From NCBI GenBank assembly GCA_030592655.1, contig JAUVIQ010000001.1:1-59356 (forward strand): a DNA stretch of 59,356 nucleotides. Direction: 5' to 3'. Source of the DNA: Planctomycetales bacterium. GTDB lineage: Bacteria > Planctomycetota > Phycisphaerae > SM23-33. Under the pieces are notes generated by a model. The model was given only the letters and a program-made list of their open reading frames with translations. It ran no database searches and had not been told where the DNA came from. A program made the position numbers and the translations under genes. Below, piece by piece: positions 12,991 to 54,024 of the stretch (position 1 is its first letter; every line of letters starts with the position of its first letter).

Positions 12991-13093
12991 AGGGCGAGGA
13001 AGATACGGGCACGGAGCATTTAATTGCTCCGATTCCCTATCTTTTACCCGTCGTTATTGGATTGTTCCTGCGGGGTTTTGTAGAATGTGTGTG

Positions 13094-13627: not shown

Positions 13628-13711
13628 CTCGTTTTTTGGCATGGTTCAATTCAGGGGAACACCAAGCACTGTCTGAACGGTTACATTTTTTATTCGTGCA
13701 ATTCGTGGACT

Positions 13712-25934: not shown

Positions 25935-26112
25935 AAATAGGGGGTGAATGGAAGAGTGTTCGACACACTTTGGCCGAACACAGAGGTACACATGTGTATG
26001 AGACGAAATCTTTGCTTGGGGGAGTTAACCCTTGGGATATGCGCAAAAGAAAACCGGGCAAAGCCTGTTAACTATGGCCTCGCCCGGTCAAATGTTTGGA
26101 TACAAAGACAGC

Positions 26113-27831: not shown

Positions 27832-28353
27832 AAAGCGAACACACAGAAATCACAAACAGCGGGAACTTGACCAATGATGGCCTGAAGCAAATGTGAGTGA
27901 GCAAGAGCACTGCACAATCTCTCTTTACAGATTCAGCCTACTCCGCCGCTCCCAAAAACGGGCTGAAGTATTATGAATCATACAACAAATCCCGGATTTG
28001 TCAAGTCTTTTCCTTGACGCGAGATACGCGATTGTCCACAAAGACCCGTTTCAAAGTTCCGATGTTCTCGGTGTTCACTTCAATCACATCGCTTGGCTCA
28101 CGGCCGAACGGGTCGAAGTCGGCGACCTTGAATGCCCGGCAAAGGGCATCCACCCAAAGATGAATGATGGACGCCCCTTGCGCAGACCTCAATTGAACAG
28201 GGGGTTATGTAACACGCGATCCCTCTATTTTCACAGGAATGCACGTGATACGGTCGCCATCCTGCAAGACATACTCCCTGGAAACGGGTTGGCGATTGAC
28301 GCGGGAAACACGGAAATATGGGAGACTTTTTCAACAACCCCAGCGTCCCCATA

Positions 28354-29922
28354 TTAAAAATATCCTTCGTAGGATACTTTGGGCCTGGCGGAGATGAATT
28401 GTTCGAGTTGCCTTACAGCGAAGATTAAGGCGAAGACGCCCAAGGCCGCGGCAGCACCGGCGAGGTCCCAAGCGACGTCGGAAAGTTGTGGGCTGCGAGT
28501 GGAGAGAAATTTCTGTGCCAGTTCACCCATCGCCGCGGCTGTCGCGCCGACGGCGGTGCAGAATATCGCCCGCCGCCATGAACGGCAGCGGGTTTGCCAT
28601 AATAACACAGCCGTCAGGCCAAACGCGCCGAGCAGGTGCATTACCCCGTCGCTGCACTCTTTCAGCAACGGGCGCACCCATGCCGACCGACCGACCCGGC
28701 TCTCAAGACCAAGCACCACCATCACGGCCAGGAAGGCGACCATGACGGTCCACCCGTGGTACCGGCGAACGGGATGGGCGAAAATGTGCGGCATAAGCCC
28801 CCATGTAACAGCCGCGACGACGATGACAACCGGAGCCGCCAATCCGCCGCCGGCCAACAGTCCACAGCCAGCCAAAACGACAACGACCGACCAGATCGCG
28901 CCCCTGGCCTGATCCCCCGACGAAGCGCCGCGCGAAACGTACAGGCTCCAGATCAAGGCTGACAACATCCCACAAACAACCGCCGAAAACCCGACCCAAC
29001 CGGCAGAAACCACCAGAAGACCCGTTCCGGACATGCCGGCAGAAGGTAAAACATCCCCCAGCCCGCCGGTTCCGAATAAGGTCGCTTCGGAAATCCATTT
29101 ACCCGCTGCCGGGTCAAGCCGGCTCATGGCCACGATACCACTGATGCCAAGCACCGTTCCGATCAGCAGCAGTTTGAGACGATGGTTCCGTAAAAACACG
29201 CCCGACAGCAGCAAGGCTCCGCCGACGGCGCATGTCGCGAAAATCGCAGCGCCGGCGGCCCGGTGGTGCGAAACAATCAGCAGCGTCGCCAGCAGCGCCG
29301 CCGAGGTAACTCGCATCACCAATTCAACCCTGTTTTCCTTGCCCGGTCTTCGACCCTGAGGCTCAGACCCGAAGGGCAAGGCGCATGGCGTCAGCAATAT
29401 GCCAACCCCCGCCAAGCCGGCCAAAGCCACCGCCTCAACAGCGGGGCCTGGCGATTGGCTGGATATTTTCAATATCGCGCCGACAGCCACTATCAATCCG
29501 ACCGACGTCAACAGCCATCGCATTCGATGCACTCGCGACAGGACGTCCTGGGCGAGCAGCACCAACAGACCCAGCGTCATCATCCGTATCATCAGCCCGC
29601 TGTCGTTTTCGGCAAGGAGGTTAACCTTCCCGCTTTCGGAATCGAACCGGCCTGCGGCGAGAATGTGCATCAACAGGATAATTACCGGAACAGCCAGGAA
29701 CGGTTGAAGAACGTGCCCGGGGATAGCGGTCCGGCCCTCGGTTCCGCGCCAATACAACCAGCATACCCACAGCCCCATCCCGCAGAGGATAAGCGCTATC
29801 CACCCACCGGCAGAGGCGTCCATCACGCCCGCACCGGCGGCGACCGTCAGCGCGATCATCCCAGCCAGGACGACATGCCACAACCCCTCGGAAGTATGGC
29901 TACTGACAGAAGATAACGACAA
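28354..29922 (-). CDS. polytopic membrane protein (Wzy/O-antigen-ligase-like body, VanZ-like C-terminus)
   Basis: More than 10 hydrophobic segments. LFGTGGLGD resembles the Wzy_C family pattern. The C-terminal ...GELAQKFLSTRSPQLSDVAWDLAGA resembles VanZ. Both assignments are tentative. Confidence 0.45.
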   Translation of the reverse strand: MSLSSVSSHTSEGLWHVVLAGMIALTVAAGAGVMDASAGGWIALILCGMGLWVCWLYWRGTEGRTAIPGHVLQPFLAVPVIILLMHILAAGRFDSESGKVNLLAENDSGLMIRMMTLGLLVLLAQDVLSRVHRMRWLLTSVGLIVAVGAILKISSQSPGPAVEAVALAGLAGVGILLTPCALPFGSEPQGRRPGKENRVELVMRVTSAALLATLLIVSHHRAAGAAIFATCAVGGALLLSGVFLRNHRLKLLLIGTVLGISGIVAMSRLDPAAGKWISEATLFGTGGLGDVLPSAGMSGTGLLVVSAGWVGFSAVVCGMLSALIWSLYVSRGASSGDQARGAIWSVVVVLAGCGLLAGGGLAAPVVIVVAAVTWGLMPHIFAHPVRRYHGWTVMVAFLAVMVVLGLESRVGRSAWVRPLLKECSDGVMHLLGAFGLTAVLLWQTRCRSWRRAIFCTAVGATAAAMGELAQKFLSTRSPQLSDVAWDLAGAAAALGVFALIFAVRQLEQFISARPKVSYEGYF

Positions 29923-30033
29923 CGCGAAATTCTCCTTACATCCAGGACGATGATTTTGGTACGCTTATATAAGGTGTAGCCCACCTTAATCCTACAGCAA
30001 GATACTTATCGTCCACAGGCGGTGGCGAGTGAA

Positions 30034-31719
30034 ATGACAAAACATCGGTCTTTTCTATTATGTTGTCTTATGGCAACGGGCGTTCTTGCGCCGGCGACTG
30101 CAAAGGCGCTTAGGCCGGAGGAAGTCCTGGTTGTAACCAACGCCAACGCCAGAGGTTCGGAAAAACTGGGCAAATACTACTGCCTGGCCCGCAACATTCT
30201 CCCGAAACGAATGGTCGCCCTGAAGACCACCGCCGGGGCGATCGCCTCACGCAGGGAATACAACGACAACATCCGCGACCCGCTGCGAGAGTTCCTCACA
30301 CGAAACAAACTCAAGGGACAGATAAAGTGCATCGTGCTGATGTGGGGCGTACCGGTCCGCGTCCTCGGAACAAAAATGACCAAAGAGCAACAAGAACTCA
30401 TCTCCACATATAAATCCGTCCGAACGCGGCTCCACGGACGACTGGCGGTCAACGCCGAATTAATCAAGACCATCGGAAGGGATTTCCCGGTTCAGCGAAC
30501 AAAAACGCTTCGCCCGGTCGGGGCCTTGTTCGCGCCGCGTGCAGCCGAGAGACTCGACAACCCGCCGGCCTTTGCGAAACTCAAGCGAACCTTCGATAGC
30601 GAATTAAAGAAAAAACATACCGAGGTCAAAAAACTGACCGACAGAAAAAAACGCCGCATCGCCCTGCGACAGATCGCATCGCTTCAACTGGACACATACG
30701 GTGCAAGTCGCTGGTTGAAAAAAACGCCGGATGAATCAATCGTCAGCGGTACGGAGAAGGACCAGATAAAGCGGGAGAAGACGGCGGACAATGCCGAACT
30801 GGCCCGCTTGAAGGCCTCGGACGAAACTCCCAAAACAGCCCGCAGGATTACCGAATTGCTGGTTCGGACTCGCGGAATCAGCAACGCATACTCACACTGC
30901 GACAAGAGAATCAAGGCCGTTAACACCGATGTCGAAGACGCCTCGGTCGATAGCGAACTGGCGCTGCTTTGGGAACAGGGAAATCATTCGCTTCGCAACT
31001 GGAGGCCCAATCCGATGAACTGGCGAGTGGCGAATGCGACCAAACGCCCGCGCAACACGCCGGCCGAGATAATCATGACCGCGCGTATCGACGGGCCTTC
31101 CGCCGCCGACGCGCTCCGCATAATCAAAGATTCAATCGAGACCGAAAAGGTCGGCTTGAAGGGGAAGTTTTACATCGACGCCGGCGGGAAATATCCGCCC
31201 TACGACAAACACCTGAAGATTCTGGCAAAGATCGTCAAAAAGCACACAAAAATCCCCGTCGTGCTGGACACGAAGAAGGCGTTATTCGCTCGCGGCAAGT
31301 GTCCCGACGCGGCCTTGTACGTCGGATGGTACAGCCTGCGGAAATACATACCGGCGTTCAAGTGGTCTCGCGGCGCGGTCGCCTGGCACATTGCCAGTTT
31401 CGAGGCCCATCATTTACGCACGCCGACAGTCAACGAATGGTGCGTCAAGATGCTCCAGAACGGCGTCGCCGCAACGGTCGGAGCCGTCAACGAACCGTAC
31501 CTCCACGCCTTCCCCCTGCCGGAGGATTTCTTCAGCCTGCTGCTGACCGGAAACTTCACACTGGCGGAATGCTACTGGCGAACGATCCCGTCGGTGAGTT
31601 GGCGGATTACATTCATCGCCGACCCGCTGTATAATCCATTCAAGTTGCATCCGCAATTTTCAATGTACGCCCTGCCGGCGGCACTCACAGGACGAGCCGT
31701 AAAATCGAAAACCAAATAA
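30034..31719 (+). CDS. secreted hypothetical protein (possibly TIGR03790-like)
   Basis: Signal peptide followed by LRPEEVLVVTNANARGSEKLGKYYCLARNI. The family is recalled from memory and not verified. The start is set to the ATG at 30034 (the ORF track starts at the GTG at 30022). Confidence 0.45.
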   Translation: MTKHRSFLLCCLMATGVLAPATAKALRPEEVLVVTNANARGSEKLGKYYCLARNILPKRMVALKTTAGAIASRREYNDNIRDPLREFLTRNKLKGQIKCIVLMWGVPVRVLGTKMTKEQQELISTYKSVRTRLHGRLAVNAELIKTIGRDFPVQRTKTLRPVGALFAPRAAERLDNPPAFAKLKRTFDSELKKKHTEVKKLTDRKKRRIALRQIASLQLDTYGASRWLKKTPDESIVSGTEKDQIKREKTADNAELARLKASDETPKTARRITELLVRTRGISNAYSHCDKRIKAVNTDVEDASVDSELALLWEQGNHSLRNWRPNPMNWRVANATKRPRNTPAEIIMTARIDGPSAADALRIIKDSIETEKVGLKGKFYIDAGGKYPPYDKHLKILAKIVKKHTKIPVVLDTKKALFARGKCPDAALYVGWYSLRKYIPAFKWSRGAVAWHIASFEAHHLRTPTVNEWCVKMLQNGVAATVGAVNEPYLHAFPLPEDFFSLLLTGNFTLAECYWRTIPSVSWRITFIADPLYNPFKLHPQFSMYALPAALTGRAVKSKTK

Positions 31720-31746: not shown

Positions 31747-32595
31747 ATGGGCAAGACATCCGCATACAAAGACTTTACAAGGCGATTGACCCTTCTTGTA
31801 AGCAAGCACCCCGATTTGATCACCACTACGTTAAGCAACATCTTCACGATGCGCCTTATTGGAAATAAAACACACGGCGATCTTGCTGAAATTGCCATTG
31901 CAGAGTTTATCAATCAGTATATGTATGATTTCCGGTCGATACACGTCGGTAAGGACCTATATCGAGCCAAATCACACGAAGAGGATATAAAGATCGTCAA
32001 CGAAATCACAGAAGCCGAATTTCCTGTGAGCCTCAAGGCTTATGGTGACGGCCCACTTCAGTTGTCAACGGACAAAAACTTTCGCATGTTTCCCCGCTTG
32101 GAGCAAGAGAAGGGAGTTGTTCAAAATCGAAAAAAGATACAAAGGATTTTCGCGGATCCGGCCTTTACCGATTTCGGCGAGATTAATGTACTGCCACTGA
32201 TATACGACGAGAAAAAACTACGTTGTAACATTTTCGTTTTTGATTATGATCGCGCAAAGCGTCGCACCGTTCGTATCGCACGAGAAGAGGCGGGAAGAGG
32301 GAGAAAACATCCTGTTTACCGTTTTTACGACAGTGACGGCGATTACATATGCGAAGTCCGATACGGTGATGCTGCTGCAAACGCGCTCCAGCGTGGACTG
32401 TGGACACACACAAAGAACGGGCTGAAGTACTTCGACAGTATCACGAATGGGTGGATTGACTATTCGCACAATCTTGTTCTGGTTAAACTGTTTTCTCATG
32501 CACTGGTTTCTTCGCAAGCCGGGCACTCGTCCGCGCTTGAAAAGATCAAGGAAGACATCGCTCTTCTGAAACAACGGTCTGGTTTGAAGCAATAA
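31747..32595 (+). CDS. putative type II restriction endonuclease
   Basis: It lies immediately upstream of a DNA methyltransferase, with a TAATG junction. It is AT-richer and has a possible PD-(D/E)XK-like string (HEEDIKIV...VSLKAYG). No family is recognised. Confidence 0.5.
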   Translation: MGKTSAYKDFTRRLTLLVSKHPDLITTTLSNIFTMRLIGNKTHGDLAEIAIAEFINQYMYDFRSIHVGKDLYRAKSHEEDIKIVNEITEAEFPVSLKAYGDGPLQLSTDKNFRMFPRLEQEKGVVQNRKKIQRIFADPAFTDFGEINVLPLIYDEKKLRCNIFVFDYDRAKRRTVRIAREEAGRGRKHPVYRFYDSDGDYICEVRYGDAAANALQRGLWTHTKNGLKYFDSITNGWIDYSHNLVLVKLFSHALVSSQAGHSSALEKIKEDIALLKQRSGLKQ

Positions 32596-33728
32596 TGGAA
32601 ACGATCTCGTTATTCAGCGACGTTGTTGTCGATGCTCCTCGTACGGAGGGCATCAAATATACGGGGTCCAAGCTGAAACTCCTTCCCCATATACTCCGAT
32701 TAGCAAGGCAAGTTGATGCCAAGACTGTATTGGACGGTTTCTCCGGCAGCACGAGGGTCTCGCAAGCATTCGCCAAAAGTGGATATCGAGTTCTGTGTAA
32801 TGACATATCCGTTTGGTCTAACGTCTTCGGTACTTGCTACCTTCTCAACGACAAGGGACGCGGAGCATATCAGGGTCTGATCGATCACCTGAATTCATTG
32901 CCGCCCATTGACGGATGGTTCACGGAGAACTACGGTGGCTGGCCCAATGGGGGCTGCGCGGTTCAAGCGGATGGACTTAAGAAACCCTGGCAAATTCACA
33001 ACACGAGAAAACTCGACGCCATAAGACAGGAAATCGAGAACCTCGCCCTCCCGACCGTGGAAAGGGCCGTTGCCTTGACCAGCCTGATCCTCGCTCTTGA
33101 CAAGGTGGACAGCACCCTTGGGCACTTCGTATCTTACCTCAAGGATTGGTCGCCAAGATCGTCAAACGATCTCGTTCTCAAGACACCGAGTGTCTTTGTT
33201 ACCGAGGAAGAGCACCAGGTCTTTCGGCGAGATATTTTCGATCTTGTACCTGACACGCCTGTGGACCTGGCGTATTTTGACCCGCCTTACGGTTCAAATA
33301 ATGAGAAGATGCCTCCCTCACGAGTAAGGTATGCTTCATATTACCACCTGTGGACCACAATATGCCTTTATGACAACCCTGAATTATTCGGTAAGGCCAA
33401 ACGAAGAAAAGACACTTCAGATAGGGTGGCAACCTCTGTATTTGAAGAATTCCGGCGGAATGATAATGGACGGTTTGTCGTCGTGGAAGCCATTGAACGA
33501 CTGATTCGTTCCGCAAAGGCCCGCTGGATTATACTTTCATACAGTTCAGGAGGGAGAGCCACCGCAGATGAATTGAACCAGGTGCTGACAGACAGCGGCA
33601 AACTCCTGGAAGTCGTGGAAGTTGACTACAAAAAGAATGTAATGGCCGGAATGAAATGGACAAATGAGTGGATTTGTGAGGCTGATGAACCCAATCGCGA
33701 GTTCCTCTTCCTTATCGAGAAACGATGA
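32595..33728 (+). CDS. DNA N6-adenine methyltransferase (DPPY type, Dam/D12-like motif order)
   Basis: YTGSKLKLLPHI, DGFSGSTRV (SAM-binding loop) and AYFDPPYG (catalytic motif IV). Confidence 0.8.
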   Translation: METISLFSDVVVDAPRTEGIKYTGSKLKLLPHILRLARQVDAKTVLDGFSGSTRVSQAFAKSGYRVLCNDISVWSNVFGTCYLLNDKGRGAYQGLIDHLNSLPPIDGWFTENYGGWPNGGCAVQADGLKKPWQIHNTRKLDAIRQEIENLALPTVERAVALTSLILALDKVDSTLGHFVSYLKDWSPRSSNDLVLKTPSVFVTEEEHQVFRRDIFDLVPDTPVDLAYFDPPYGSNNEKMPPSRVRYASYYHLWTTICLYDNPELFGKAKRRKDTSDRVATSVFEEFRRNDNGRFVVVEAIERLIRSAKARWIILSYSSGGRATADELNQVLTDSGKLLEVVEVDYKKNVMAGMKWTNEWICEADEPNREFLFLIEKR

Positions 33729-44013: not shown

Positions 44014-44126
44014 GGGTGGCACCTTCAACCGTAGCGAAGCGGAGGTTGTGGGTGCTGGATGGGCAAAATGTAAAGCACCCACAAGCTCCGCTCCACTTCG
44101 TTCCGCTGCGCTTGAAGGTGCCACCC
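44014..44126. mobile_element. 113-bp palindromic (MITE/REP-like) element, intergenic copy
   Basis: 15-bp perfect terminal arms gggtggcaccttcaa / ttgaaggtgccaccc and inner arms gcggaggttgtgggtgct / agcacccacaagctccgc. It is near-identical to 50022-50135 except for the loop. Confidence 0.75.
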
Positions 44127-44132
44127 GGTCAT

Positions 44133-45461
44133 TTATTTATTTTCCCTTATCCGTTTTAATCGCGCTTGTTCGCGCGGACAGTGGGCGAAGCATCGTCCGC
44201 AGGCAAGACAGTCGGCACGGTCGGCTTCGTAGTCGTCCCGCCTTCGACGGATGGAAAATCGAATCATCTTCAACATCACTACAAGCGCGATGAACGCGCC
44301 CAACAACCGGGCTCCGAGGAGAAACTCTCCACGTTTGCCCGAAGCCTCTTCGTAAAGTTCAGCCACAGGCCTGCGGCTTTCGCGAAAGACCTCACTGGCA
44401 TCGGTGGTCCCTTTGATTTTTCCTGCATCTTCGTCCCGGATGCGTTCGGCCAGGCGGATTGTCGGATTTCTGCGAGACAGAACGGGCGAGACCCGCCCGC
44501 CCAACCAGCCGCCGACAGCAACCATCACCGGCAGCAGGAGAATCAGCGCCGCCAGCCGGCCTTTGCCTTCGCTCCGGCTGACGTTTTTTCGGCGGGTTGG
44601 TTTATTTATGGCTCCGAACGGACAGGCGTCCTCGCACAAGCGGCACTGGATACACTCATCCGGCGTGATGGTTACTCGCCAACGGGAAAAGCGGCTGAGG
44701 ATACGCAACAACGCTCCGTAGGGGCAGACGAACCGGCAATAAACCCTGCCGATAAAGGCGCTTATCAATAAGACGCACGCGCCCAGCGCAAGGAGGTTGA
44801 AACGTCCGCCCAAATCCCACCCCGGCCAGGAACCGTCCTGGATAATCGCCTGTCCCCATTTACCAAGCGGAACCAGGCGGAAGAATCCGACGAACGGGTC
44901 GAGCCGGCAGATGATAAACGCGCTGCCGGTGGCCGCCATCAGAACCGCCAGACCAAGATAGACATACGGCAAAATCCCCAGCGCGTGGGCCAGCCAGGCC
45001 GGGACTTTGAGAGGTTTGACAAGCACGACGTCCTGGATCGCTCCAAGCGGGCAAACGGCTGCACAAAAGACCCGCCCGAAAAAGAGCGTGAACACCAGCG
45101 GCAGGGCGAAGAAGGCGATAATCGCCGCCGGGACGACATACCCGCTGTCGAACAGGCCCAGCGTAACATTCTGTATCGACCCGACCGGACAGACGCACCC
45201 GCCTCGCCAGAAGCCGAAATACAACAGCGAAAAAATCGTCAGCGCGAGCAAGCCTCGCCGCGAACGCCTTTTCAACGCCAGGTACGCCGCCAGCGCCATC
45301 GCCGCCGCCAGTACCGCTACGTCAATATATTCAAAAATATCGCTCTGCGGCGCCGGCGTTGTCGTATCGGGCCGGTCATACCATTTCGGCAGTTTCGCCG
45401 CAGCCAAGGCGACGCTCGCCGAAACAGTTAGCACAATCAGAAAGAGAATCAATCGTCTCAA
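44133..45461 (-). CDS. NapH/MauN/NosH-family membrane polyferredoxin
   Basis: CX3CP motifs at TM ends (FCAAVCPLGAIQD, YCRFVCPYGALL), GCVCPVGSIQ, and cytoplasmic CIQCRLCEDACPFGAI and CLACGRCFAHCP. Confidence 0.75.
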   Translation of the reverse strand: MRRLILFLIVLTVSASVALAAAKLPKWYDRPDTTTPAPQSDIFEYIDVAVLAAAMALAAYLALKRRSRRGLLALTIFSLLYFGFWRGGCVCPVGSIQNVTLGLFDSGYVVPAAIIAFFALPLVFTLFFGRVFCAAVCPLGAIQDVVLVKPLKVPAWLAHALGILPYVYLGLAVLMAATGSAFIICRLDPFVGFFRLVPLGKWGQAIIQDGSWPGWDLGGRFNLLALGACVLLISAFIGRVYCRFVCPYGALLRILSRFSRWRVTITPDECIQCRLCEDACPFGAINKPTRRKNVSRSEGKGRLAALILLLPVMVAVGGWLGGRVSPVLSRRNPTIRLAERIRDEDAGKIKGTTDASEVFRESRRPVAELYEEASGKRGEFLLGARLLGAFIALVVMLKMIRFSIRRRRDDYEADRADCLACGRCFAHCPREQARLKRIRENK

Positions 45462-45504
45462 ATCTCGTTACCCTTTATCCGTCACTTCGTTCCGGAAGAG
45501 AACA

Positions 45505-46071
45505 TTACTGTTTGGTTTTGAGCAGGTAAGGCTGGTCCGCCGGAACTCGTCTGAACGCATCGGATGGGCAGGCTGCCGCGATGGCGCATTCGTTACAGTT
45601 GATGCACAGGTCGTGGCGAACCTGGAGGAACAGCGCGCCCATACCGAACTGCCCGCACCCGGCTACGCATTTTCCACAGCCGATGCACAACTGCTCGTCA
45701 ATTTTGTATTCGTACTGGGGCCCGTGGACAACTCTTCGCCGGATCGCCCCGGTCGGGCAGAGTTGGTTCTCCGCGCCGGTCTCGACGTCCGGGGCATCGA
45801 GATCGAAATATCCGAAACATTTCTCGCAGTACTCGCAAATGTCGAATGCGTGTACGCACTTCACAGCCGAGGGTTTCAGAACGCAGTACGTCGCGCAGTT
45901 TCCACATGCGATGCACTTTTCCGGGTCAATTTGCCAGACGGTATCGCCGGCTCGGCTTCGCGCGAGAAGCCCGCCGGCAGCAGCGCCCACTCCCGCCAAC
46001 AACGCGCCGCGAACGCCTCCGCGAATAAAATCACGCCTGGTCAGACCGGATTCTTTTTCCTTCTCGCTCAT
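45505..46071 (-). CDS. Tat-exported multi-[4Fe-4S] ferredoxin (NapG-like)
   Basis: Twin-arginine signal GLTRRDFIRGG. Cluster motifs CIACGNCATYC, CEYCEKC, CIGCGKCVAGC and CINCNECAIAACP. The start is trimmed to MSEKEKE (46071), giving an ATGA overlap upstream. Confidence 0.75.
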   Translation of the reverse strand: MSEKEKESGLTRRDFIRGGVRGALLAGVGAAAGGLLARSRAGDTVWQIDPEKCIACGNCATYCVLKPSAVKCVHAFDICEYCEKCFGYFDLDAPDVETGAENQLCPTGAIRRRVVHGPQYEYKIDEQLCIGCGKCVAGCGQFGMGALFLQVRHDLCINCNECAIAAACPSDAFRRVPADQPYLLKTKQ

Positions 46072-46283
46072 CTTTTCGACATCCCGCGTTTGATGGTCAT
46101 CGCCTGGGGCAGTTCGCAATCGTCGAATGCCCGACAATCGCGGCAGAAGCCGCGAGAAATACATCTCTGCCCAGGCCGAAATCTTCGCTTCAGCAGAACA
46201 TACGAGACAGCCGCTACAGCCCCCATCGCTGCGCCGCGAACGACCCAGCCAAGAAAATCGCGCCGGTTTTGTTTGTCCTGCAC
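46068..46283 (-). CDS. small Tat-signal-like, membrane-anchored Cys-rich protein (71 aa)
   Basis: GTG start 1 nt after the NHL gene stop. NRRDFLGWVV followed by a hydrophobic helix, then CISRGFCRDCRAFDDC (4 Cys). The longer ATG-initiated version would overlap the NHL gene by more than 130 nt. Confidence 0.35.
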   Translation of the reverse strand: MQDKQNRRDFLGWVVRGAAMGAVAAVSYVLLKRRFRPGQRCISRGFCRDCRAFDDCELPQAMTIKRGMSKR

Positions 46284-46284
46284 C

Positions 46285-47298
46285 CTATTCACTTCCGTCC
46301 TTCTTTCGAATAAAGACACGCACCGCTTTTTCGGACGGGTCCAGTACGAGCACTCGCCCGCGCGAATCGACGGCAAGGTCGAGTCCGACGGTCCCCTTTG
46401 CGAACACCTCAGTACCGGCAACCACGCTCCTCAAACATCCCGTCTCGTCGCATATCTTCACCCGTGGCAAACCCTTCTCGCCGGTTATCAACCAGCCATT
46501 GGGAAGGACCGCAATGGCCGTCGGATTGCAGCAGCCACAGAAGCCCTCGATTTCCTGCGATTGCCTGCCCCAGTGGCGTTTGGGCTTTCCGTCGAACGAA
46601 TAGGCTTCGACGCGCCATCGTCCCGGATTTACAACCCACAAAACCTTCCCGTTCTCCACCGCCACATCGACACAAGGCTTACGAACGAGGAGTCCCGGAA
46701 TGCCCCTGCTTTTATCGACCTGACCGATACGATTCAGAAGCCGGCCGGCCTTGTCATAACGCAAGACGACGCTGTTGCCCGAATCGGCGACGAATACGTC
46801 GGAATCCGACAGTGCAATCGAGGTAATGACAGCCTCCTTGCCGAGGCTTGGCCATTTTGCCCGGCGATTGGCCCGTCGGCCTTTCTGCGAATAAATCTCC
46901 ACGTGGTCGATCATTCCCACATAAATTGTCCCATTGCCTTCGACGGCCAGACATTGGGGCGGGTCGTCCAGGGAAACTTGCAGGAATCCTTTGCCGTCGC
47001 GGTCAAAGGCGACGATTTTCTTGTCGCCGGCGACATATACGGCGGCGTCAGGGCGGACGGCTATGCCGCGAGCGACCTTCAAACCGGTTTCAATCGGCTG
47101 GAGTTCCTTGTAGTGAATCATGCCGGGGTCGGTTCTGCGGTATTGCTTGTCGTCATAGACGAACTGTTTTCCGAGTCCGCTACCGGCCTCGCCGAACGGG
47201 TCGAATCGCAGGATGACGACAACCGCCGCCGCAATCGCAACAACTATGACCACAGCAATAATCACGCCGGTCGTCGAGATGCTTCGTTTTTCGCTCAC
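46285..47298 (-). CDS. membrane-anchored NHL/six-bladed beta-propeller protein with CGCCNP motif
   Basis: N-terminal TM helix and repeated motifs of the form G.IAV..DG.VYVAD (for example ARGIAVRPDAAVYVAG, VFVADSGNSVVL). Unusual EGFCGCCNPTAIAV string. GTG start overlapping the upstream stop (GTGA). Confidence 0.6.
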   Translation of the reverse strand: MSEKRSISTTGVIIAVVIVVAIAAAVVVILRFDPFGEAGSGLGKQFVYDDKQYRRTDPGMIHYKELQPIETGLKVARGIAVRPDAAVYVAGDKKIVAFDRDGKGFLQVSLDDPPQCLAVEGNGTIYVGMIDHVEIYSQKGRRANRRAKWPSLGKEAVITSIALSDSDVFVADSGNSVVLRYDKAGRLLNRIGQVDKSRGIPGLLVRKPCVDVAVENGKVLWVVNPGRWRVEAYSFDGKPKRHWGRQSQEIEGFCGCCNPTAIAVLPNGWLITGEKGLPRVKICDETGCLRSVVAGTEVFAKGTVGLDLAVDSRGRVLVLDPSEKAVRVFIRKKDGSE

Positions 47299-48725
47299 TT
47301 TTTTCTAACATCCAGGCATATCATTGTCTTGGAATCCCGCACGATAAGCCTACCGCCGGCGATGGCCATCGGCGCCCAGGAATCTTTTCCCGAAAGCACC
47401 TTCGCCCGCGCCAATTGCCTGTAACCTTTCGGCGTCGCCTCAAGTAGCGTCAGCACGCCGTGATCGTCCGTAACAAAAATCTTTCCGTCGGCGATAATGT
47501 AAGGCCCGCCGAAGGGTCCGAAACGATTGGCCGCTCCGCTGGTCCAGACCTGCCGGCCTTGAAGGTTCAGGCAAACCATCTGTTCTTTTAACTCACCTGC
47601 GTCCTTGCTTGTTACGCCGAAAATATGGTCTCGATGGAAGATGGGCGTCTGCATCTCGGAGCCGAAGACCTTCTGCTTCAGTTCGAAGAGTTTCTTCGGG
47701 ACGATTTTACCGTCCCGCTCGGTCAGCCGGATCATCATGCTTCCCGCGCGGTATCCGCCGGTCAGGAATATCCGCCCATCCGGAACGATTACCGGCGAGG
47801 GGGCATTGGAGGTGGGGACCCGCCAGCCGGGGTACTCCCAGAGGATTTTCCCATCAGCCGCCGATACCCCAACCACTCCGCCGCTTGCGCAATAGACATA
47901 CATTCGCTTACCGCCCCACATCATCGGCGTAATAGACGAGTGTGTCATTTTCCACGAGTGCGGGTTGGGCGCTTTCCAGAGGACCTTACCCGTGGCGCAA
48001 TCGACGGCGATCATCATGCTGCTGCCGGCCGGGGCGATAATGGCTTTGCCGTCGTCAATCATCGGGCATTGGGAGGTGTACCACAGCGGGACTTTCGTAC
48101 CGTATTCATGCACCAGGTCGATCCCCCAGAGGAATTTTCCGCTTTGCGCGTCGGCGCACATGACATGGCATGCCGGGCCGATGGTTACGACGAATTTTTC
48201 GGTAACCGCCGGTACGGTCCGGCTGATACCGTGCTGACTGGAAAGAGGGACCTTATACCCAAGCCGCCATATTTCCTTCCCGTCGGCCAGCGACAGGCAC
48301 CGCAGCGTGTCGGCCTGTTCGTCCTCGTCGTAATCGAGGACATAGACCTTCCCGCCGAGAATTGCCGCCCCGGCGTACCCTTCGCCCATTTCGACCGACC
48401 AGAGCGCCGGCGGACCTGTCTTGTCCCAGGTCTTGGCCAGCGGGACGGTTTCGGTGCTTATGGTGTCGAAATTGCTCCCACGGAACCTCGGCCAAGCGCC
48501 GGGCAGGTTCGCCGCCTTTCCGGCCCCTGCGACAAAGACAGGCGGAAAAACCGGAACGTGCTCGATCAGGGCGGACTGTTCAACAACCGGTAATCTCGGA
48601 TCGACATCCATTCCGGGCCCGCCCCGGAGCCACAGATTCAACAGGACCGCCCCGGCAGCGGCGACCGAAGCCGGTATCAATATCCCGATAATGACGGAAA
48701 CGATTTTCATAATTGGTTTATTCAC
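47295..48725 (-). CDS. membrane-anchored PQQ-like beta-propeller repeat protein
   Basis: An N-terminal TM, then PQQ-type repeats (LRCLSLADGKEIWR, VMCADAQSGKFLWG, IAVDCATGKVLWK). Confidence 0.75.
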   Translation of the reverse strand: MNKPIMKIVSVIIGILIPASVAAAGAVLLNLWLRGGPGMDVDPRLPVVEQSALIEHVPVFPPVFVAGAGKAANLPGAWPRFRGSNFDTISTETVPLAKTWDKTGPPALWSVEMGEGYAGAAILGGKVYVLDYDEDEQADTLRCLSLADGKEIWRLGYKVPLSSQHGISRTVPAVTEKFVVTIGPACHVMCADAQSGKFLWGIDLVHEYGTKVPLWYTSQCPMIDDGKAIIAPAGSSMMIAVDCATGKVLWKAPNPHSWKMTHSSITPMMWGGKRMYVYCASGGVVGVSAADGKILWEYPGWRVPTSNAPSPVIVPDGRIFLTGGYRAGSMMIRLTERDGKIVPKKLFELKQKVFGSEMQTPIFHRDHIFGVTSKDAGELKEQMVCLNLQGRQVWTSGAANRFGPFGGPYIIADGKIFVTDDHGVLTLLEATPKGYRQLARAKVLSGKDSWAPMAIAGGRLIVRDSKTMICLDVRKK

Positions 48726-51700
48726 CTCTCAGCGCCGATAATATCTCCCCGCGCAATGCCGACGCGGTCGCCAGATATATCCACAATATCCCCCCGCAGG
48801 CCACTGCTGCAAGCGTCAGCAGCAGCGAAAGACCGGGCACAGCGCCGCCGGATGAACGAAGCACGGGTATAACCGCCACAAAACCGGACAACGAACCGCA
48901 CAATAAACCCATCGCCAGCAGGACAGAATGTTCGTAAAGCACCATCCGATATAGCACGGACCTGGAGAATCCCACAGCCTGAAGCAGCGCCAATTCGCCC
49001 CGGCGCTCCAACACATTCCGCAACACCACCACGCCAAGCCCCACGCTTCCCAACAGCAGCCCAAGTGAGCCCAAGGCCTGGAATATCGAAAGATAAGTAT
49101 TGCGAACGGCGTAAAAAGCGGCCAGCCTGTCGGTCGTCGGAGTCAATTCCAGACCGACGTCGGCGAGGCCGGGATCGGCGGTAAGCGTCCGTGTCAGGCT
49201 TTCGACCTCGCTGGGTGGGGCGTCTATCAGGAACGCGCGATAGCCGCTTTCGGAACCGAAATGCCCGGTGAAATTCCGCTCGGAAATTATCAGCCCGCCC
49301 TGAAGAATCGACCCTGCCAGCGCGCCGACCAGACGAATCCGAAATGTTTTTCCCCGCTCGTCGGTGTAAGCGAGCGTATCGCCGACGGATTTGCCCAATG
49401 CCCAGACGATAGTAGCCTGGTCGGCGACGGCGGGGGTCGCGCCGTCGGTCTCTATGCGGTTCAGAAGCCGCCACGGATCGTCGGTTTTTCCGATGGTCTT
49501 CGCGAAGGTGAACCGCCCACGCAGTTGTCCGGGTTCGACGCCCATAATCCTCGGCCTTTGCGGACGGTTGAGGTTGAGGCAGCTGGCGTCGTCGCCGTCG
49601 TGGATGCGGAACCGGACGCCTTCGGTCTCGTCGAGGTCGTCCGGAACCGGCAGCGCGCTCTCGCCGTACAGTGCGAACCCGCCGGTCGGCGAGGAAGATT
49701 TTCCGGTGTCCGTAAGGGGGTTTTTCCGATTAGCGCCGACAGCGACGATAAGAAAAACCCCGCACGCCAACAGCGCCACCGTCGCAAGCGACCGCCCCGG
49801 CCGACGGCCTGTATTTCGCATAGACAGACCGGCCAGTGTCATTTCCACAGAACGTGATAATCTTGATATCCACGCACGGACAAATGCCAAAGAGCCAATG
49901 AGCAGAACAGCGCCGGCCGCGAAGAAAACCGTCGGTGCATATCTGTCGTTCCCTGCGCTCACCGCAAGTATCGCAACCGCTGCGCCCACCGCAACCAAAC
50001 CGAACCATAAACCGAAATGTCGGGTGGCACCTTCAACCGGAGCGGAGCGGAGGTTGTGGGTGCTGGATGAACTGTGGAGCAGAGCACCCACAAGCTCCGC
50101 TTCACTTCGTTTCGCTCCGCTTGAAGGTGCCACCCGACCGCCGGTGAGCAACTGCCTTGCCGATAATGTCATCTGGCCTCGAAGCGTTATCCACATCGCC
50201 GCCAGCGCAATCAGCACGCCGGAGACACCTCCGACGGCAAGCGTCATCGGCTCGACGCCGAAGCGGATTGTCGATGTCCCCGCCGCTGCACCGGTCCAGA
50301 CGGTTCCCAGACCAAGGATAATCGCCTTTGTGTACATCAGCCCGGCAAACGTACCGATAACGCCGCCGATTAACGCCAGAACTCCACCTTCAGCCAGCAT
50401 CAGCCGGCGCACCTGGCCAGGCCTGAAGCCCATCGCCAGAAGCGTACCGACCTGCTCGGACCGCTGCTGGACGCCGAAGACGAACAGCAACCCCACCAGC
50501 AGCGCCGCCGATGCCATCAGGAAGAAACTCATCCCCAGGAACAGCGAACCAAAGTTCAGCGATTTTTTACCGGCGGCCACGGCTTCAGCGCGGACAGGGC
50601 GGAAGAACAGGCCCACCGATGCAGGATCAATCTCCGCCCGAAGCATGTCGCCCCGTACCCGGCTCGATACGGTGGACAGCGGGAAACGAATCGCCGTCAG
50701 GCCACCGAAGCGATTGGACCACATTTTCTTACCGGCCCGAAGTGTGACGAAGGCTTTGGGCGTGCCGCCGTAGCGGTTCCAGTAATCTTCGTCTTTGTCT
50801 CTGACCCTGCGCGGGTCGAAGTATTTCCCCGGCTTCCAGTCTTTGCAGTTTTTGACGCCGGTGATGCCGGGGAATTTCGGCATCAGTTCCCTGTCAGCAT
50901 CGCGTACATCCATCGAAGTGATGCGGCGAACGCGAAATTTACTTGTGCGAGTCTGAAGTTTCCGCGTCGGAGAGATAACGAAATACTCAAGTTCAATCTC
51001 ATCGCCGACCTTCGCTTGCAGATCGTCGGCGAGCCACTTGTTGATATTAATCTCATCGTCTTTGATGTCGAACGACAAACCGGGATGCTCTAAGCCCAGG
51101 GGTTCGAATCCCTGGGTTTCTTCTCGATTACCGAGCGGTCCCATCGCCGTTACCATCGAGTAAGGCGTCTTACGTTTTCCGCATCGAATTTCAGTAACGA
51201 AATATGTCAGTATGCCGTCGGCAGAGGGAATGATTTTCTTCGCCGCCTGCTCGACGGGATGCTCAATGAACACGCGGTCCGTGCGAAACTCGCCGTAACC
51301 GCCGGGTAATTCTCGCACTTCCAGTTCGGCGTCGGCGAGTTTCCAGTGCTTTCGCATAGCAGCGCCGGCCGACTTGGGATTTATTTTCGCGCCCTTGCCG
51401 AGAAGGAGCATATTCGCTCGCCCGGGGCGGTCTATCGCAGACTGTAATATCTCCAGCGGGACGAAAGCCGTCATTGGTGCGACCTGTTCCGCCCGGAGGC
51501 TGAAGCGTCCGAATTGGGATTCCGAAGCAACGGCTTTGACGGTCAGTCGCATCGCAACGGCGGTTTCGGCATCGCCCGACATTGGTGCATCGTTCGGCAT
51601 CAGGCCCGGCTTGCGGATGCGAAGGACGATACTGTCGCCGGGGCGAACGCCGAGCCTCCGGGCAAGCGGTTCGTTCAGGACAACCTCGCGGCTGGCCTTG

Positions 51701-52080: not shown

Positions 52081-52808
52081 TTCAGACTATCTTTCTCGAC
52101 GAGCACGCCGTCGGTCAGTTCGAGCATTCGGTCCATCCGGCCGGCAAGGTCTGTCGAATGCGTTACGACGATCAACGCAGTTCCTTCTTCGCGGTTCAGT
52201 TCGACCATTAGTTCGGCGAGGTTATCCGAGGCGGCCTGGTCCAGCGAGCCTGTCGGCTCGTCGGCAAGCAGCAATTTCGGGGCGTTGATAAGCGCTCGAA
52301 CGACGGCGACTCGCTGGCGTTCGCCGCCGGAGAGTTGCCCGGGACGATATGAAACTCGCCCGGTAAGCCCGACCCGCTCCAGCAGCCTTTGGGCCCGCTC
52401 GGCAGCGCCGTCCCGGTCAGTTACAAGCGTCGGTACGAGGACATTTTCCAGAACAGTGCATTGCGGCAGAAGATGATGGAGTTGGAAGACGAAGCCTATT
52501 TGCCGGCTTCGGATGGCTGCGAGGGATTTTTCATCCTGTTGCGAGAGGTCCTGACCGTTCAACATTACCCGCCCGGAGGTGGGCTTATCCAGCGAACCGA
52601 TGATATTCAGCAGCGTGCTTTTACCCGAGCCGGAAGGACCGACAATCGCCACCGACTCGGCGGCATCGACCTGAAGCGAAAGACCCTTGAGAACCTCCGT
52701 CGCCGAAGCGATACCGGGAGAATCGTAACGTTTGTATATGTCAGTCAGTTCCAGAAGCGGGTTGGGCGACATGATTTTATCCTGATTGTCATTTTGGTCC
52801 GAAGGCAT
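52077..52808 (-). CDS. ABC transporter ATP-binding protein (LolD/MacB/YbbA-like)
   Basis: Walker A GPSGSGKSTLLN, signature LSGGERQRVAVVRAL and Walker B LLLADEPTGSLD. The start may be the internal Met at 52772. Confidence 0.9.
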   Translation of the reverse strand: MPSDQNDNQDKIMSPNPLLELTDIYKRYDSPGIASATEVLKGLSLQVDAAESVAIVGPSGSGKSTLLNIIGSLDKPTSGRVMLNGQDLSQQDEKSLAAIRSRQIGFVFQLHHLLPQCTVLENVLVPTLVTDRDGAAERAQRLLERVGLTGRVSYRPGQLSGGERQRVAVVRALINAPKLLLADEPTGSLDQAASDNLAELMVELNREEGTALIVVTHSTDLAGRMDRMLELTDGVLVEKDSLK

Positions 52809-54024
52809 ATACCGTCCCGTCCTCGCTTCCGACGATAATCGCCGAACCTGCCACGGCGGGCGAAGCCGTTATTGGCTGTCCTACTTCATAAGACCATAAT
52901 TTGGCTCCATCCGAAAGTCTCAGCAGGTACAGCCTGCCGTCGTCGCTGCCGACGACGACCTTGTCGCCGCAGACGACGGGGGAACTATCAACATTGCCGC
53001 CGGTCCTGAAGACCCAAACCCGCTTTCCGGTTTTACGGTCGATGCAATGGACCCACTCATCCTGTGAGCCGAACACGACGTAATCGTCCGTTACCGCCGG
53101 CGATGAAAAGACCGGGCCGTCCATATCATCGTACCGCCAGAGGATTTTGCCGGACAAGAGGTCCACGCAGACGATCTCGTTGTCGTAATGACCGACATAC
53201 GCCCGACTGCCCACTATCGCCGGCGAAGAGACGATGGGAGCATCGACCTCGATACTGCGCGAGAATGTGCCGTCGGCGATGTTGACGACATAGAGGCAAC
53301 TCCCACAGTTTCCGAAGACAGCCTTCCCGTCGGCCAGGGCGGGAGCGCCGTTTATAAATTGTTCCGTCTCGTATGCCCAGACGCCTTTACCGTCGGATGC
53401 GTCCACGCAGTGCAATTTTTTGTCGTAACTACCGAAGAGTATCCACGTTTTACCGGATGCGATGCGGACCCGGTTGGCTGAACCGAGGATTTGTCCGCCG
53501 GCTTTGTATTTCCATTTTTCACCGCCCGTTTCAGCGTCGATGGCGTAGAGAATCGAATCGGTCGAGCCGACCAGGACCATTCCGTCGGCGAGGATCGGCG
53601 GCGCTTCGATCTCCCCGCCGGTCGGGAATACCCAGACTCTTTTCCCGTCGAGCAGGTTGAGGGCATAGACGTTCGAATCTGCCGAAGCGACGAACACCTT
53701 CCCGCCGCCGACGGCGACCGACGATTTGACAAGCCCGTCAGTGTGGAATACCCAGATGAGTTTGAATGAATCACCGAGATTGCCCCCGGCGATACCCCGC
53801 AGCGCCTTTCCGCCGCGAAATATCGGCCAATGCGCGTCGGCGACGTCGGCCGGTGCGAAACTCCCGCCGCCCGGAGCGTCGCGAACGGGCCGGCTGGCGA
53901 CTGGAGCGGTCGTCGTTTCGGCGTCCGGGCCGAACGAACCGCTCATCACAACTATCGCCCACGCCGCAACGCCGACAACAACCGCAAGGATTATCTCTAT
54001 CGAAACGGACTTCATTGCTAACAC
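52789..54024 (-). CDS. PQQ-like (BamB-type) beta-propeller repeat protein
   Basis: A signal anchor, then repeats VYALNLLDGKRVWVF, LYAIDAETGGEKWKY, LHCVDASDGKGVWAY, VHCIDRKTGKRVWVF. Confidence 0.75.
   Translation of the reverse strand: MLAMKSVSIEIILAVVVGVAAWAIVVMSGSFGPDAETTTAPVASRPVRDAPGGGSFAPADVADAHWPIFRGGKALRGIAGGNLGDSFKLIWVFHTDGLVKSSVAVGGGKVFVASADSNVYALNLLDGKRVWVFPTGGEIEAPPILADGMVLVGSTDSILYAIDAETGGEKWKYKAGGQILGSANRVRIASGKTWILFGSYDKKLHCVDASDGKGVWAYETEQFINGAPALADGKAVFGNCGSCLYVVNIADGTFSRSIEVDAPIVSSPAIVGSRAYVGHYDNEIVCVDLLSGKILWRYDDMDGPVFSSPAVTDDYVVFGSQDEWVHCIDRKTGKRVWVFRTGGNVDSSPVVCGDKVVVGSDDGRLYLLRLSDGAKLWSYEVGQPITASPAVAGSAIIVGSEDGTVYAFGPK

Follow-up and report, generated by a model that had tools for sequence, protein, structure and literature searches.

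In a stretch of 59,356 nucleotides (nt) from a Planctomycetales bacterium (contig JAUVIQ010000001.1 of assembly GCA_030592655.1; this whole stretch is called the window hereafter), we found a 13-gene, co-directional cluster of ~19 kb on the minus strand. This cluster probably (we estimate about 55%) encodes a conserved haem-free envelope redox machine, which would conduct electrons from NADH/ferredoxin through the membrane to a set of beta-propellers and would probably end at the dithiol of a membrane-anchored NHL propeller. It encloses four genes (NHL propeller, four-cysteine mini-protein, polyferredoxin, NapH-like membrane protein), which an earlier reading of this DNA, here called the original prediction, had described as a periplasmic redox module without its reductase. 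We recovered these four open reading frames (ORFs) on the minus strand exactly where they had been placed, but the unit is larger and also involves further propellers, an ATP-binding cassette (ABC)/FtsX machine and a cytoplasmic flavoprotein module. Taken together, the original interpretation was partly supported by our data.

RESULTS

Conservation of the gene cluster

From position 57776 down to 38881, all ORFs are transcribed in the same direction and are closely packed or overlapping. The order of transcription starts with propellers of 499 and 455 amino acids (aa), a pilin-like protein (excluded from the count of 13 genes), a 411-aa propeller, an ABC ATPase, a 1120-aa permease and a 476-aa propeller. 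The NHL propeller, the mini-protein, the polyferredoxin, the NapH-like protein, a 592-aa propeller, a 781-aa NuoE-NuoF fusion and a 339-aa Fe-S protein follow. The cluster genes are strictly co-conserved and partly translationally coupled. The ABC ATPase gene overlaps the permease gene by 4 nt and the 476-aa propeller gene shares a GTGA overlap with the NHL gene. Junctions of 1-4 nt, as originally proposed for the four genes, were confirmed for NHL/mini-protein (1-nt spacer) and mini-protein/polyferredoxin (ATGA overlap), whereas the polyferredoxin and NapH-like genes are separated by 43 nt. Scans for riboswitches, RNAs, promoters and terminators yielded nothing informative.

More than 1500 relatives of the NHL protein were found in the protein collection, and a profile search of 1.84 billion representatives returned 1855 matches at E<=1e-30, the best 150 of which all scored above 350 bits. 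When one genome per species was scanned, at least 575 species were found to encode a relative. The 80 loci that were kept include representatives from Planctomycetota (Phycisphaerae, Sedimentisphaerales, Pirellulales, Brocadiia), Aminicenantes and Armatimonadota, but also from Verrucomicrobiota, Kiritimatiellae, Spirochaetota, Bacteroidota, Aegiribacteria and Anaerolineales.

Gene order was compared in two directions. The forward comparison involved 80 loci from species genomes of more than 10 phyla, in which ORFs were labelled with the window proteins, and the reverse comparison started from the NapH-like protein and involved 80 metagenome contigs. Both samples consist of the 80 closest loci of the respective scan, which are phylogenetically non-independent, and the counts are restricted to loci with sufficient flanking sequence. 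Throughout the 80 genome loci, the gene order was nearly identical. Downstream of the NHL gene, the polyferredoxin and NapH-like genes were present in 57/58 loci, the 592-aa propeller in 45/48 and the NuoE-NuoF fusion in 44/48. The 476-aa propeller directly preceded the NHL gene in 61 of 66 loci and the FtsX permease was located upstream in 36/52. Starting from the NapH-like gene, we observed the polyferredoxin (63/63) and the NHL gene (49/49) upstream, and the 592-aa propeller (49/54) and the NuoE-NuoF fusion (37/41) downstream. Two loci deviated: L008 carries only the left half of the cluster, which ends with the NHL gene, and in L081 the NHL gene is accompanied only by a 476-type propeller and a malectin-domain gene.

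The original prediction had suggested testing genome-wide whether the NHL gene and the NapGH-like pair occur together, and the adjacency in 57 of 58 and 49 of 49 loci indicates that the NHL protein has a dedicated partner in this pair, which is not an orphan of a nap, nos or mau system. The conserved neighbours in the 160 loci are the NHL protein, PQQ-like propellers and the NuoE-NuoF fusion, and not a nap, nos or mau enzyme. As reported before, such enzymes are also missing from the window, since no molybdopterin oxidoreductase, NosZ or methylamine dehydrogenase domain was detected in any of its sizeable ORFs. ORFs with two or more CxxCH motifs were absent from the genome loci L001-L084, so that the system lacks c-type cytochromes.

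The NHL propeller and its cysteine pair

The NHL protein reaches 21.7 bits with the Pfam NHL family (PF01436; cut-off 20) and matches TRIM2/3 NHL profiles at 1e-16 to 1e-20. It contains EGFCGCCNPTAIAV and, in agreement with the original description as a membrane-anchored propeller with a CGCCNP motif, starts with a single very hydrophobic helix. An AlphaFold2 model with a predicted local distance difference test (pLDDT) score of 86 involves this helix and six four-stranded blades. Foldseek comparison of the model retrieved the NHL domains of TRIM2/3, Thin, Brat and PknD as well as designed propellers (TM-score up to 0.80), and no enzyme was found among the structural neighbours in the sequence-profile and Foldseek searches.

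Alignment of NHL homologues, which had been recommended as a check of the cysteine motif, indicated that G-C-C-N-P is unchanged in 30 diverse sequences. Among 351 homologues, C256, N258 and P259 were present in every sequence, G255 in 350, F253 in 349 and C257 in 348. W243, T272, E274, K275, R279 and K281 are conserved in 346 or more of these sequences each, and the positions of E274 and R279 are conserved in the generic NHL repeat too. As judged from the alignment, the CC-N-P turn is the sole clearly family-specific feature of the protein. The other candidate ligands behave differently. Position 254 is Cys in 71% and Ser in 15% of the 351 homologues, position 116 is Cys in 81% and position 132 is His in 77%, and each of the three residues was lost independently in 19-29%. 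For positions 116/254/256/257/132, the combination C/S/C/C/H was observed in 32 sequences and A/C/C/C/H in 19, and variants with S, T or Q at position 254 are still located within complete clusters. Since the losses of C254, C116 and H132 do not co-vary, the core of the NHL protein is the vicinal Cys-Cys and not a three- or four-cysteine cluster site. This variation argues against a fixed four-cysteine Fe-S or metal site (C116, C254, C256, C257), which we rejected. Of the original suggestion that the NHL protein may be a metal- or cluster-binding redox partner, the partnership with the Fe-S pair is supported, whereas a fixed cysteine-cluster site is not.

The motif lies directly before strand 259-264. 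NHL topology and the DSSP string suggest that this strand is the innermost one of blade 5, and the topology would place the cysteine pair on the D-A/B-C loop ("top") face near the propeller axis. C254 was lost in 7/16 loci without the mini-protein gene but in only 13/103 of the other loci (Fisher p=0.006, uncorrected for phylogeny), which hints at a possible functional contact between the NHL protein and the mini-protein.

Several additional observations concern the same protein. The public gene call (P0001, 326 aa) begins 11 codons 3' of the GTG that overlaps the upstream stop codon (47266-47298). This start would remove 11 residues in front of the membrane anchor, including a K-R pair, and homologues favour the longer form. 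Most NHL homologues carry a very hydrophobic Sec-type anchor and some have lipobox-like signals. Clear twin-arginine signals were detected in roughly 10 of ~270 homologues (12 were flagged, some of them spurious), among them P0096, P0119, P0249, P0253, P0298, P0305 and P0364, with motifs such as TRREFIGK, SRRHFLKRG and TRRLFLRR. An 816-aa PQQ-NHL protein (P0361) was rejected as evidence for a gene fusion, since it keeps the second membrane helix and is more likely a read-through or gene-call artefact. Maturation of the cysteine motif by a radical SAM enzyme was also rejected: such genes interrupt the cluster in only two loci (L049, L080) and are unrelated to one another.

The membrane protein and the Tat-type Fe-S or Cys-rich proteins

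The NapH-like protein matches Pfam Fer4_5 (PF12801) at 2e-15 in two stretches and, in addition, several 4Fe-4S families. Its motifs are C89-x-C91-P, C133-x3-C137-P, C185-x2-D-P and C242-x3-C246-P, followed by two CX2CX2CX3CP motifs (C270..C280P and C418..C428P). The latter two had been recognized correctly, but the three CX3CP motifs of the original prediction are actually two CX3CP and one CXCP. All 15 motif cysteines are invariant in 59 orthologues. The ferredoxin domain with its 2x[4Fe-4S] motifs is split by a ~130-aa insertion that contains two helices. In the AlphaFold2 model (pLDDT 71), a signal-like helix is followed by seven further long helices. The topology was derived from hydropathy and the secondary structure of this model, with basic loops set inside; it predicts a cytoplasmic location for C133/C137, C242/C246 and the two ferredoxin motifs and a periplasmic one for C89/C91 and C185/D188. 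For the membrane domain, no solved relative was found: the sequence search gave only generic ferredoxin matches and Foldseek nothing at E<0.001.

Neither protein belongs to the NapH or NapG family proper, as judged by the cut-offs of the hidden Markov models (HMMs). The membrane protein scored 48.2 bits with the NapH/MauN model TIGR02163 (cut-off 213; only the ferredoxin part aligns), 42.3 bits with NF007013 (cut-off 234) and 35 bits with the NosR model (cut-off 1000), and no FMN_bind domain was found in Pfam. For the polyferredoxin, NapG/MauM (TIGR00397) was not among its 21 NCBIfam matches at E<=0.01. On the basis of these cut-offs and the gene context, we rejected classical nap/nos/mau membership.

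The polyferredoxin begins MSEKEKESGLTRRDFIRG and carries LTRRDFIRG. Its R12 and R13 are invariant and 17 invariant cysteines form four [4Fe-4S] motifs, so that the twin-arginine signal and the several 4Fe-4S motifs of the original prediction were confirmed; this combination is the trait of NapG/MauM-type proteins. In the mini-protein, NRRDFL (NRRDFLGW) precedes one hydrophobic helix and the pattern C-x5-C-x2-C-x5-C. The RR motif, the helix and the four cysteines had been noted before, but the first spacing is x5 and not x6. All these elements are conserved in an alignment of 56 orthologues and the gene is present in 104/124 loci. Because of this conservation, we consider the mini-protein a real gene, even though no Pfam or NCBIfam match was obtained. 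Both proteins have the conserved RR motif with a following helix that characterizes substrates of twin-arginine translocation (Tat).

The cytoplasmic flavoprotein module

The domain order of the 781-aa protein is BfuC-like 2Fe-2S, second 2Fe-2S, FMN/NADH site, 4Fe-4S and C-terminal 2x[4Fe-4S], and Pfam identified 2Fe-2S_thioredx (18-158), Complex1_51K, NADH_4Fe-4S and Fer4_21 (730-779). Residues ~183-781 align to full-length 9bov_B, 9n5u_B (NfnB) and 7t2r_B (NiFe-HydB), and residues 287-781 to 8oh5_B (Stn B subunit, StnB), with E-values of 1e-195 to 1e-205 for these four structures. The alignments to FeFe-HydB were shorter, and E-values for Bfu-type proteins overall ranged from 1e-162 to 1e-205. 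The match to NuoF of complex I was much weaker (about 1e-100). Since residues 18-158 form a NuoE/HydC-type 2Fe-2S domain in front of the HydB-type part, we identify the protein as a fusion of BfuC and BfuB. It has the additional cluster domains at both termini that typify the bifurcating Bfu family (PMC9304861).

The 339-aa protein contains 2Fe-2S, GltD-type 2x4Fe-4S and Nqo3-type ferredoxin domains but lacks the Rossmann segment. It corresponds to the N-terminal ~300 residues (about a third) of NfnA/StnA plus the Nqo3-type domain, and a long orthologue aligns to residues 2-300 of 9bov_A, 8oh5_C and 9n5u_A. This BfuA-like gene exists in two forms. In most loci it encodes 520-545 aa including a partial Rossmann (FAD/NAD) segment (for instance L020:17236-18801), whereas short forms without this segment were observed in the window (339 aa) and in L084 (332 aa, 12982-13980). 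Because such short forms occur, binding of NADP(H) is not essential. The BfuA-like subunit has only the N-terminal Fe-S part of NfnA/StnA and no catalytic domain. It looks like an Fe-S wire and may contact the NapH-like protein.

The original prediction had left the electron source as quinol or NADH. The adjacent, co-conserved NuoE-NuoF fusion of the Bfu/Stn type (E ~1e-205 to NfnB/StnB) makes electron input from NADH/ferredoxin most likely and does not favour quinol: NADH is a likely cytoplasmic redox partner and ferredoxin probably another one.

Further propellers, the ABC machine and neighbouring genes

The coordinates of all features are summarized in Table 1.

Table 1. Genes and other features of the cluster in the window
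Feature	Position	Strand	Evidence
PQQ/BamB-like beta-propeller, 499 aa	56277..57776	-	Pfam PQQ_2 1.6e-28
PQQ/BamB-like beta-propeller, 455 aa	54897..56264	-	Pfam PQQ_2 6.9e-22
PQQ/BamB-like beta-propeller, 411 aa, N-terminal anchor	52789..54024	-	Beta-prop_ACSF4 2e-63, PQQ_2 1e-47, one transmembrane helix
ABC ATPase, LolD/MacB/DevA type, 243 aa	52077..52808	-	ABC_tran 1e-36
Duplicated FtsX/MacB-type permease, large periplasmic domains, 1120 aa	48718..52080	-	FtsX 1.5e-16, MacB_PCD 2.9e-8
PQQ/BamB-like beta-propeller, 476 aa, N-terminal anchor	47295..48725	-	PQQ_2 1e-26
Membrane-anchored six-bladed NHL propeller, 337 aa, GTG start	46285..47298	-	Pfam NHL, AlphaFold2 model
C254-G-C256-C257-N-P259 codons of the NHL gene	46522..46539	-	sequence
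Tat-type signal-anchored 4-Cys mini-protein, 71 aa, GTG start	46068..46283	-	alignment of orthologues
Tat-signal polyferredoxin, 188 aa	45505..46071	-	Fer4 families
NapH-type (Fer4_5) polytopic Fe-S membrane protein, 442 aa, TTG start	44133..45461	-	Fer4_5 2e-15
Palindromic repeat element, ~114 nt, spacer	44014..44127	.	second copy at 50021-50136
PQQ/BamB-like propeller behind three-helix membrane domain, 592 aa	42218..43996	-	PQQ_2 1.5e-28, three transmembrane helices
Cytoplasmic NuoE-NuoF fusion, Bfu/Stn type, 781 aa	39897..42242	-	Pfam domains, PDB alignments
Truncated BfuA/NfnA/StnA-like Fe-S subunit, 339 aa	38881..39900	-	Fer2_4 1e-16, Fer4_20, Fer4_Nqo3

All five PQQ-like propellers match the BamB-type PQQ_2 family. 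Those of 411, 476 and 592 aa are far below the cut-off of TIGR03075 (PQQ-dependent dehydrogenase), and four of the five do not reach the cut-off of PF01011; the 411-aa protein scores 52.6 bits (cut-off 26.7) over a short stretch. The 411-aa propeller is conserved at the 5' end of the cluster. The 476-aa propeller has the conserved residues C143, H165, C186, H187, C190, C220, H262, C385 and C470, and several of these cysteines occupy the same repeat position in successive blades. In about 25 loci, the best-labelled match of the 499-aa propeller (350-600 bits) closes the cluster on its 3' side. The 499-aa protein is orthologous to this propeller, which elsewhere is encoded after the BfuA-like gene; in the window its gene has moved to the 5' end, where it adjoins the 455-aa paralogue and a prepilin-type (N_methyl) protein. 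The 455-aa propeller, which was the best match in only 3 loci, is a less conserved paralogue that belongs to the system only with uncertainty.

The ABC ATPase matches LolD (6.5e-80) and MacB (4.6e-65) but scores under the cut-off of each model, and for the permease 10 transmembrane helices were predicted. A specific orthologue of a family 4 glycosyltransferase (GT4; 500-600 bits between loci) is located within the cluster in 32 loci (for instance L020:3107-4501), usually between the 411-aa propeller and the ABC ATPase and, in Aminicenantes and Bacteroidota, at the 3' end. This gene is absent from the window.

Less regular neighbours were also recorded. Proteins with terpene-cyclase/prenyltransferase repeats (SQHop_cyclase-like, alpha/alpha-toroid) are encoded just 5' of the cluster and fall into two families with 8 and 6 loci (examples are L083:1-1635, L153:2264-4144 and L080:5150-6097). 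A Cys-rich 194-aa membrane protein follows the BfuA-like gene on the opposite strand in 13 loci, and genes for Uma2-family and PD-(D/E)XK nucleases are inserted between cluster genes in single loci (L003:11234-11866, L007:17689-18174).

The two palindrome copies are 94-96% identical, with inverted arms of 34-46 nt and a ~51-nt spacer. One of them fills the gap that separates the 592-aa propeller gene from the NapH-like gene. The other is an in-frame insertion in the FtsX permease gene and lengthens the linker between the two halves by ~30 residues when compared with the L001 orthologue. The element looks like a miniature inverted-repeat transposable element or repetitive extragenic palindrome tolerated within a coding region, and it is not part of the functional system. 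Elsewhere in the window (26001-28000), the G+C content falls to 0.47 compared with ~0.56-0.60 in the remaining parts, which coincides with a 572-aa ORF with a C-type lectin domain. Two large ORFs without Pfam match (28354-29922, 30022-31719) are located near this dip, and a D12 adenine methyltransferase is encoded at 32595-33728.

DISCUSSION

Proposed electron pathway

We propose that the Bfu/Stn-type flavoprotein (NuoE-NuoF fusion plus the truncated NfnA/StnA-like subunit) oxidizes NADH and probably exchanges electrons with ferredoxin. The NfnA/StnA-like subunit, which has lost the NADP(H)-binding part, would wire the electrons to the NapH-type protein, which would accept them at its two cytoplasmic [4Fe-4S] clusters and might relay them outward via an inner (C133, C137, C242, C246) and an outer (C89, C91, C185, D188) set of residues. 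The Tat-exported four-cluster polyferredoxin and the Tat-anchored mini-protein with its single four-cysteine site could be the next carriers, and the membrane-anchored propeller set would form the end of the chain. The likeliest redox end-point is Cys256-Cys257 of the NHL protein, which may alternate between a dithiol and a strained disulfide when fed with single electrons from an Fe-S center. The NHL propeller would thus be a putative periplasmic reductase, which might employ an Fe-S/dithiol principle like that of ferredoxin:thioredoxin reductase. The MacB/FtsX-type ABC machine, joined by the GT4 in most genomes, belongs to the same unit and might serve assembly, substrate handling or mechanical coupling. 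We infer the involvement of ferredoxin, bifurcation and the direction of electron flow from family membership.

A number of observations weigh against this pathway. The structural neighbours of the NHL propeller are non-enzymatic NHL domains, and catalysis by the NHL or PQQ-like propellers is putative and finds no support from homology. In the AlphaFold2 model of the NHL protein, residues 249-255 of the cysteine loop have low confidence (pLDDT <50), and the mini-protein is missing in 16% of the loci. L081 and L008 keep the pair of propeller and NHL protein although the electron module is not adjacent; thus, the cysteine pair may not need a dedicated electron input, or the module may be encoded elsewhere in these genomes. 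Moreover, the chain might actually end at the 476-aa propeller, which has invariant Cys and His residues as well.

Alternative explanations

The 476-aa propeller is also part of an explanation which we consider rather unlikely, although it retains an appreciable chance. Here, the Cys-Gly-Cys-Cys loop of the NHL protein together with backbone amides, or the Cys/His residues of the 476-aa propeller, would hold a periplasmically assembled metal or metal-sulfur cofactor, as in a Nos-like metalloenzyme, with the MacB/FtsX machine as assembly motor (as NosDFY) and the NapGH-like pair as electron supply (as NosGH). The combination of a propeller, an ABC machine and a NapH/NapG-type pair does parallel clade II nos clusters as they are known, FtsX is co-located in 36/52 loci, a few NHL homologues use Tat and most a Sec-type signal just like the NosZ clades I and II, and the 476-aa propeller conserves C186-H187-x2-C190, H165, H262 and C220. 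However, only two cysteines of the NHL protein are invariant while C254, C116 and H132 vary independently, and neither a His-rich site nor a cupredoxin domain nor a NosD, NosL or NosY homologue was found when the cluster proteins were compared with Pfam and NCBIfam. The repeated blade positions of the cysteines in the 476-aa protein suggest a structural role, and adjacency of the ABC/FtsX genes is not constant. We also rejected the N2O reductase of the lactonase type (clade III; PMC13477213) as a candidate, since it differs in fold class, phyla and gene context and the NHL protein lacks a His-rich site. The ABC genes can be read in yet another way. If the propellers, the GT4 and the MacB/FtsX machine serve to produce or export an envelope glycoconjugate or lipid, or act on envelope proteins, the only task of the Fe-S chain would be to maintain the thiol state, for instance with periplasmic cysteines held in the reduced form, and the cysteine pair would be a structural or regulatory switch without catalytic function. 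The specific GT4 in 32 loci, the resemblance of the ABC ATPase to LolD, MacB and DevA, the BamB-type scaffolds as best matches of the PQQ-like proteins, the loci L008 and L081, and the malectin and terpene-cyclase-like neighbours in some loci are consistent with such a role in envelope biogenesis. We give it only a small chance, because the window has kept everything else without a GT4 gene and because 11 or more Fe-S clusters plus a flavoprotein, which are costly, strictly co-conserved and coupled to the NHL gene, are hard to explain as housekeeping.

The remaining alternatives concern the direction and the origin of the electrons. Bfu/Stn enzymes are reversible (PMC9304861, PMC10482914) and NapH-like modules occur with oxidases and reductases alike (PMC8238504), so that a low-potential periplasmic donor might be oxidized at the propellers and its electrons passed inward to the Bfu module for bifurcation to NAD+ and ferredoxin. 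The periplasmic proteins, however, have no recognizable oxidase, hydrogenase or formate dehydrogenase domain, and according to established redox chemistry a dithiol/disulfide couple is too positive to reduce NAD+ and ferredoxin, which makes such reverse operation very unlikely. It is hardly credible that the pair is a classical NapGH-type quinol dehydrogenase with its reductase encoded elsewhere and with unrelated propellers as neighbours. The Fer4_5 domain, the CX3CP motifs and the Tat polyferredoxin are shared with NapGH, but the HMM score far under the NapH cut-off, the missing NapG/MauM match, the near-perfect two-way synteny with NHL and Bfu genes across phyla and the absence of a reductase gene from the 160 loci all contradict this possibility.

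Implications

The electron pathway from NADH/ferredoxin to the NHL dithiol can be extended to a bolder proposal, which is possible but in our opinion doubtful: a hitherto unrecognized, widespread, quinone- and haem-free complex of the respiratory type, in which a bifurcating NADH/ferredoxin module is hard-wired via a NapH-type conduit to a new propeller reductase that uses either the vicinal dithiol or a cofactor built by the MacB-type machine. If this were true, the complex would be an extracytoplasmic electron sink that regenerates reduced ferredoxin in supposedly purely fermentative Planctomycetota, Kiritimatiellota, Aminicenantes, Armatimonadota and others. Thousands of uncultured anaerobes of sediments, aquifers and digesters, from at least ten phyla, would then export NADH/ferredoxin electrons without quinones or cytochromes and could not be treated as strict fermenters in models any more. 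A membrane-coupled enzyme would join the bifurcating Bfu family, and for NapH-type proteins, of which we found no solved structure, both the donor and the acceptor would be defined and experimentally tractable. The conservative explanation (thiol maintenance for an envelope machine), too, would give a role to very abundant proteins which at present carry labels such as hypothetical, NHL, PQQ-like or 4Fe-4S binding. The source annotations read "hypothetical", "NHL repeat-containing", "4Fe-4S binding" and "NosR/NirI family", and no description of the cluster or the cysteine motif was found in the full-text literature when queries including the motif itself were used. We rate the system as a new combination of known module kinds (NapGH-type conduit, Bfu core) with an uncharacterised terminal protein, and a categorically new enzyme is possible.

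A survey confined to flavinylation-associated clusters described NapH-like proteins as modular conduits that carry electrons across the membrane and are attached to various oxidoreductases, including PQQ alcohol dehydrogenases and NirS; partners of the NHL, propeller or Bfu kind are not mentioned there (PMC8238504).

Comparison with known systems

The NapH-like/polyferredoxin pair functionally resembles NapGH, NosGH and MauMN but is not a member of these families by curated thresholds. It shares with NapGH/MauMN the polytopic Fer4_5 protein with CX3CP and two cytoplasmic [4Fe-4S] motifs and the Tat ferredoxin with four [4Fe-4S] motifs. In contrast to these systems, the membrane protein has an extra N-terminal signal plus helix, a two-helix insertion that splits the ferredoxin domain and the conserved cysteines C89, C91 and C185 on the predicted periplasmic side. 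There is no NapAB or MauAB, and in place of the quinone pool a Bfu-type NADH/ferredoxin module is the co-conserved partner in the cytoplasm.

In its overall layout (propeller, NapG/NapH-type module, ABC machine), the cluster comes closest to the clade II nos cluster (NosZ, NosG/NosH, NosDFY, NosL), and in both cases the propeller family employs both Sec and Tat export. However, the propeller described here is a six-bladed NHL protein without CuZ histidines or a cupredoxin domain, the ABC system is of the MacB/FtsX and not of the NosFY/NosD type, and the FMN-binding domain of NosR is missing.

With the Bfu enzymes (NfnABC 9n5u/9bov, Stn 8oh5, HydABC), the cluster shares the BfuC-BfuB fusion, which aligns nearly full-length to NfnB/StnB/HydB (E ~1e-200). 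Its A subunit is truncated and carries neither a formate-dehydrogenase-like nor a hydrogenase domain, and most orthologues have a reduced GltD-type NADPH/FAD part, of which the window protein has nothing left. The "third substrate" site of Bfu enzymes thus appears to be replaced by a membrane conduit, an arrangement which was not described in the Bfu survey (PMC9304861).

The six-bladed NHL fold is common to TRIM2/3, Brat, the PknD sensor domain and ScyD/E/F of scytonemin biosynthesis, and the models of ScyE and ScyF were matched weakly by the NHL protein. A redox step is assigned to ScyE, which is an NHL-type protein of the periplasm. None of these proteins carries the F-x-G-C-C-N-P loop, which in the NHL protein takes the place of the canonical G-x-F-x-x-P turn before the inner blade strand, and none is linked to an Fe-S chain.

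For the proposed chemistry, two precedents can be named. Reduction of a disulfide by an Fe-S cluster, one electron at a time, takes place in ferredoxin:thioredoxin reductase and heterodisulfide reductase, and in PQQ methanol dehydrogenase a vicinal Cys-Cys disulfide in the active site of a beta-propeller is coupled to electron transfer. These enzymes are mechanistic analogues only and have no kinship in sequence or fold with the NHL protein. If the analogy holds, the cluster and the dithiol would be located on separate, periplasmic polypeptides, in contrast to enzymes of the ferredoxin:thioredoxin reductase type.

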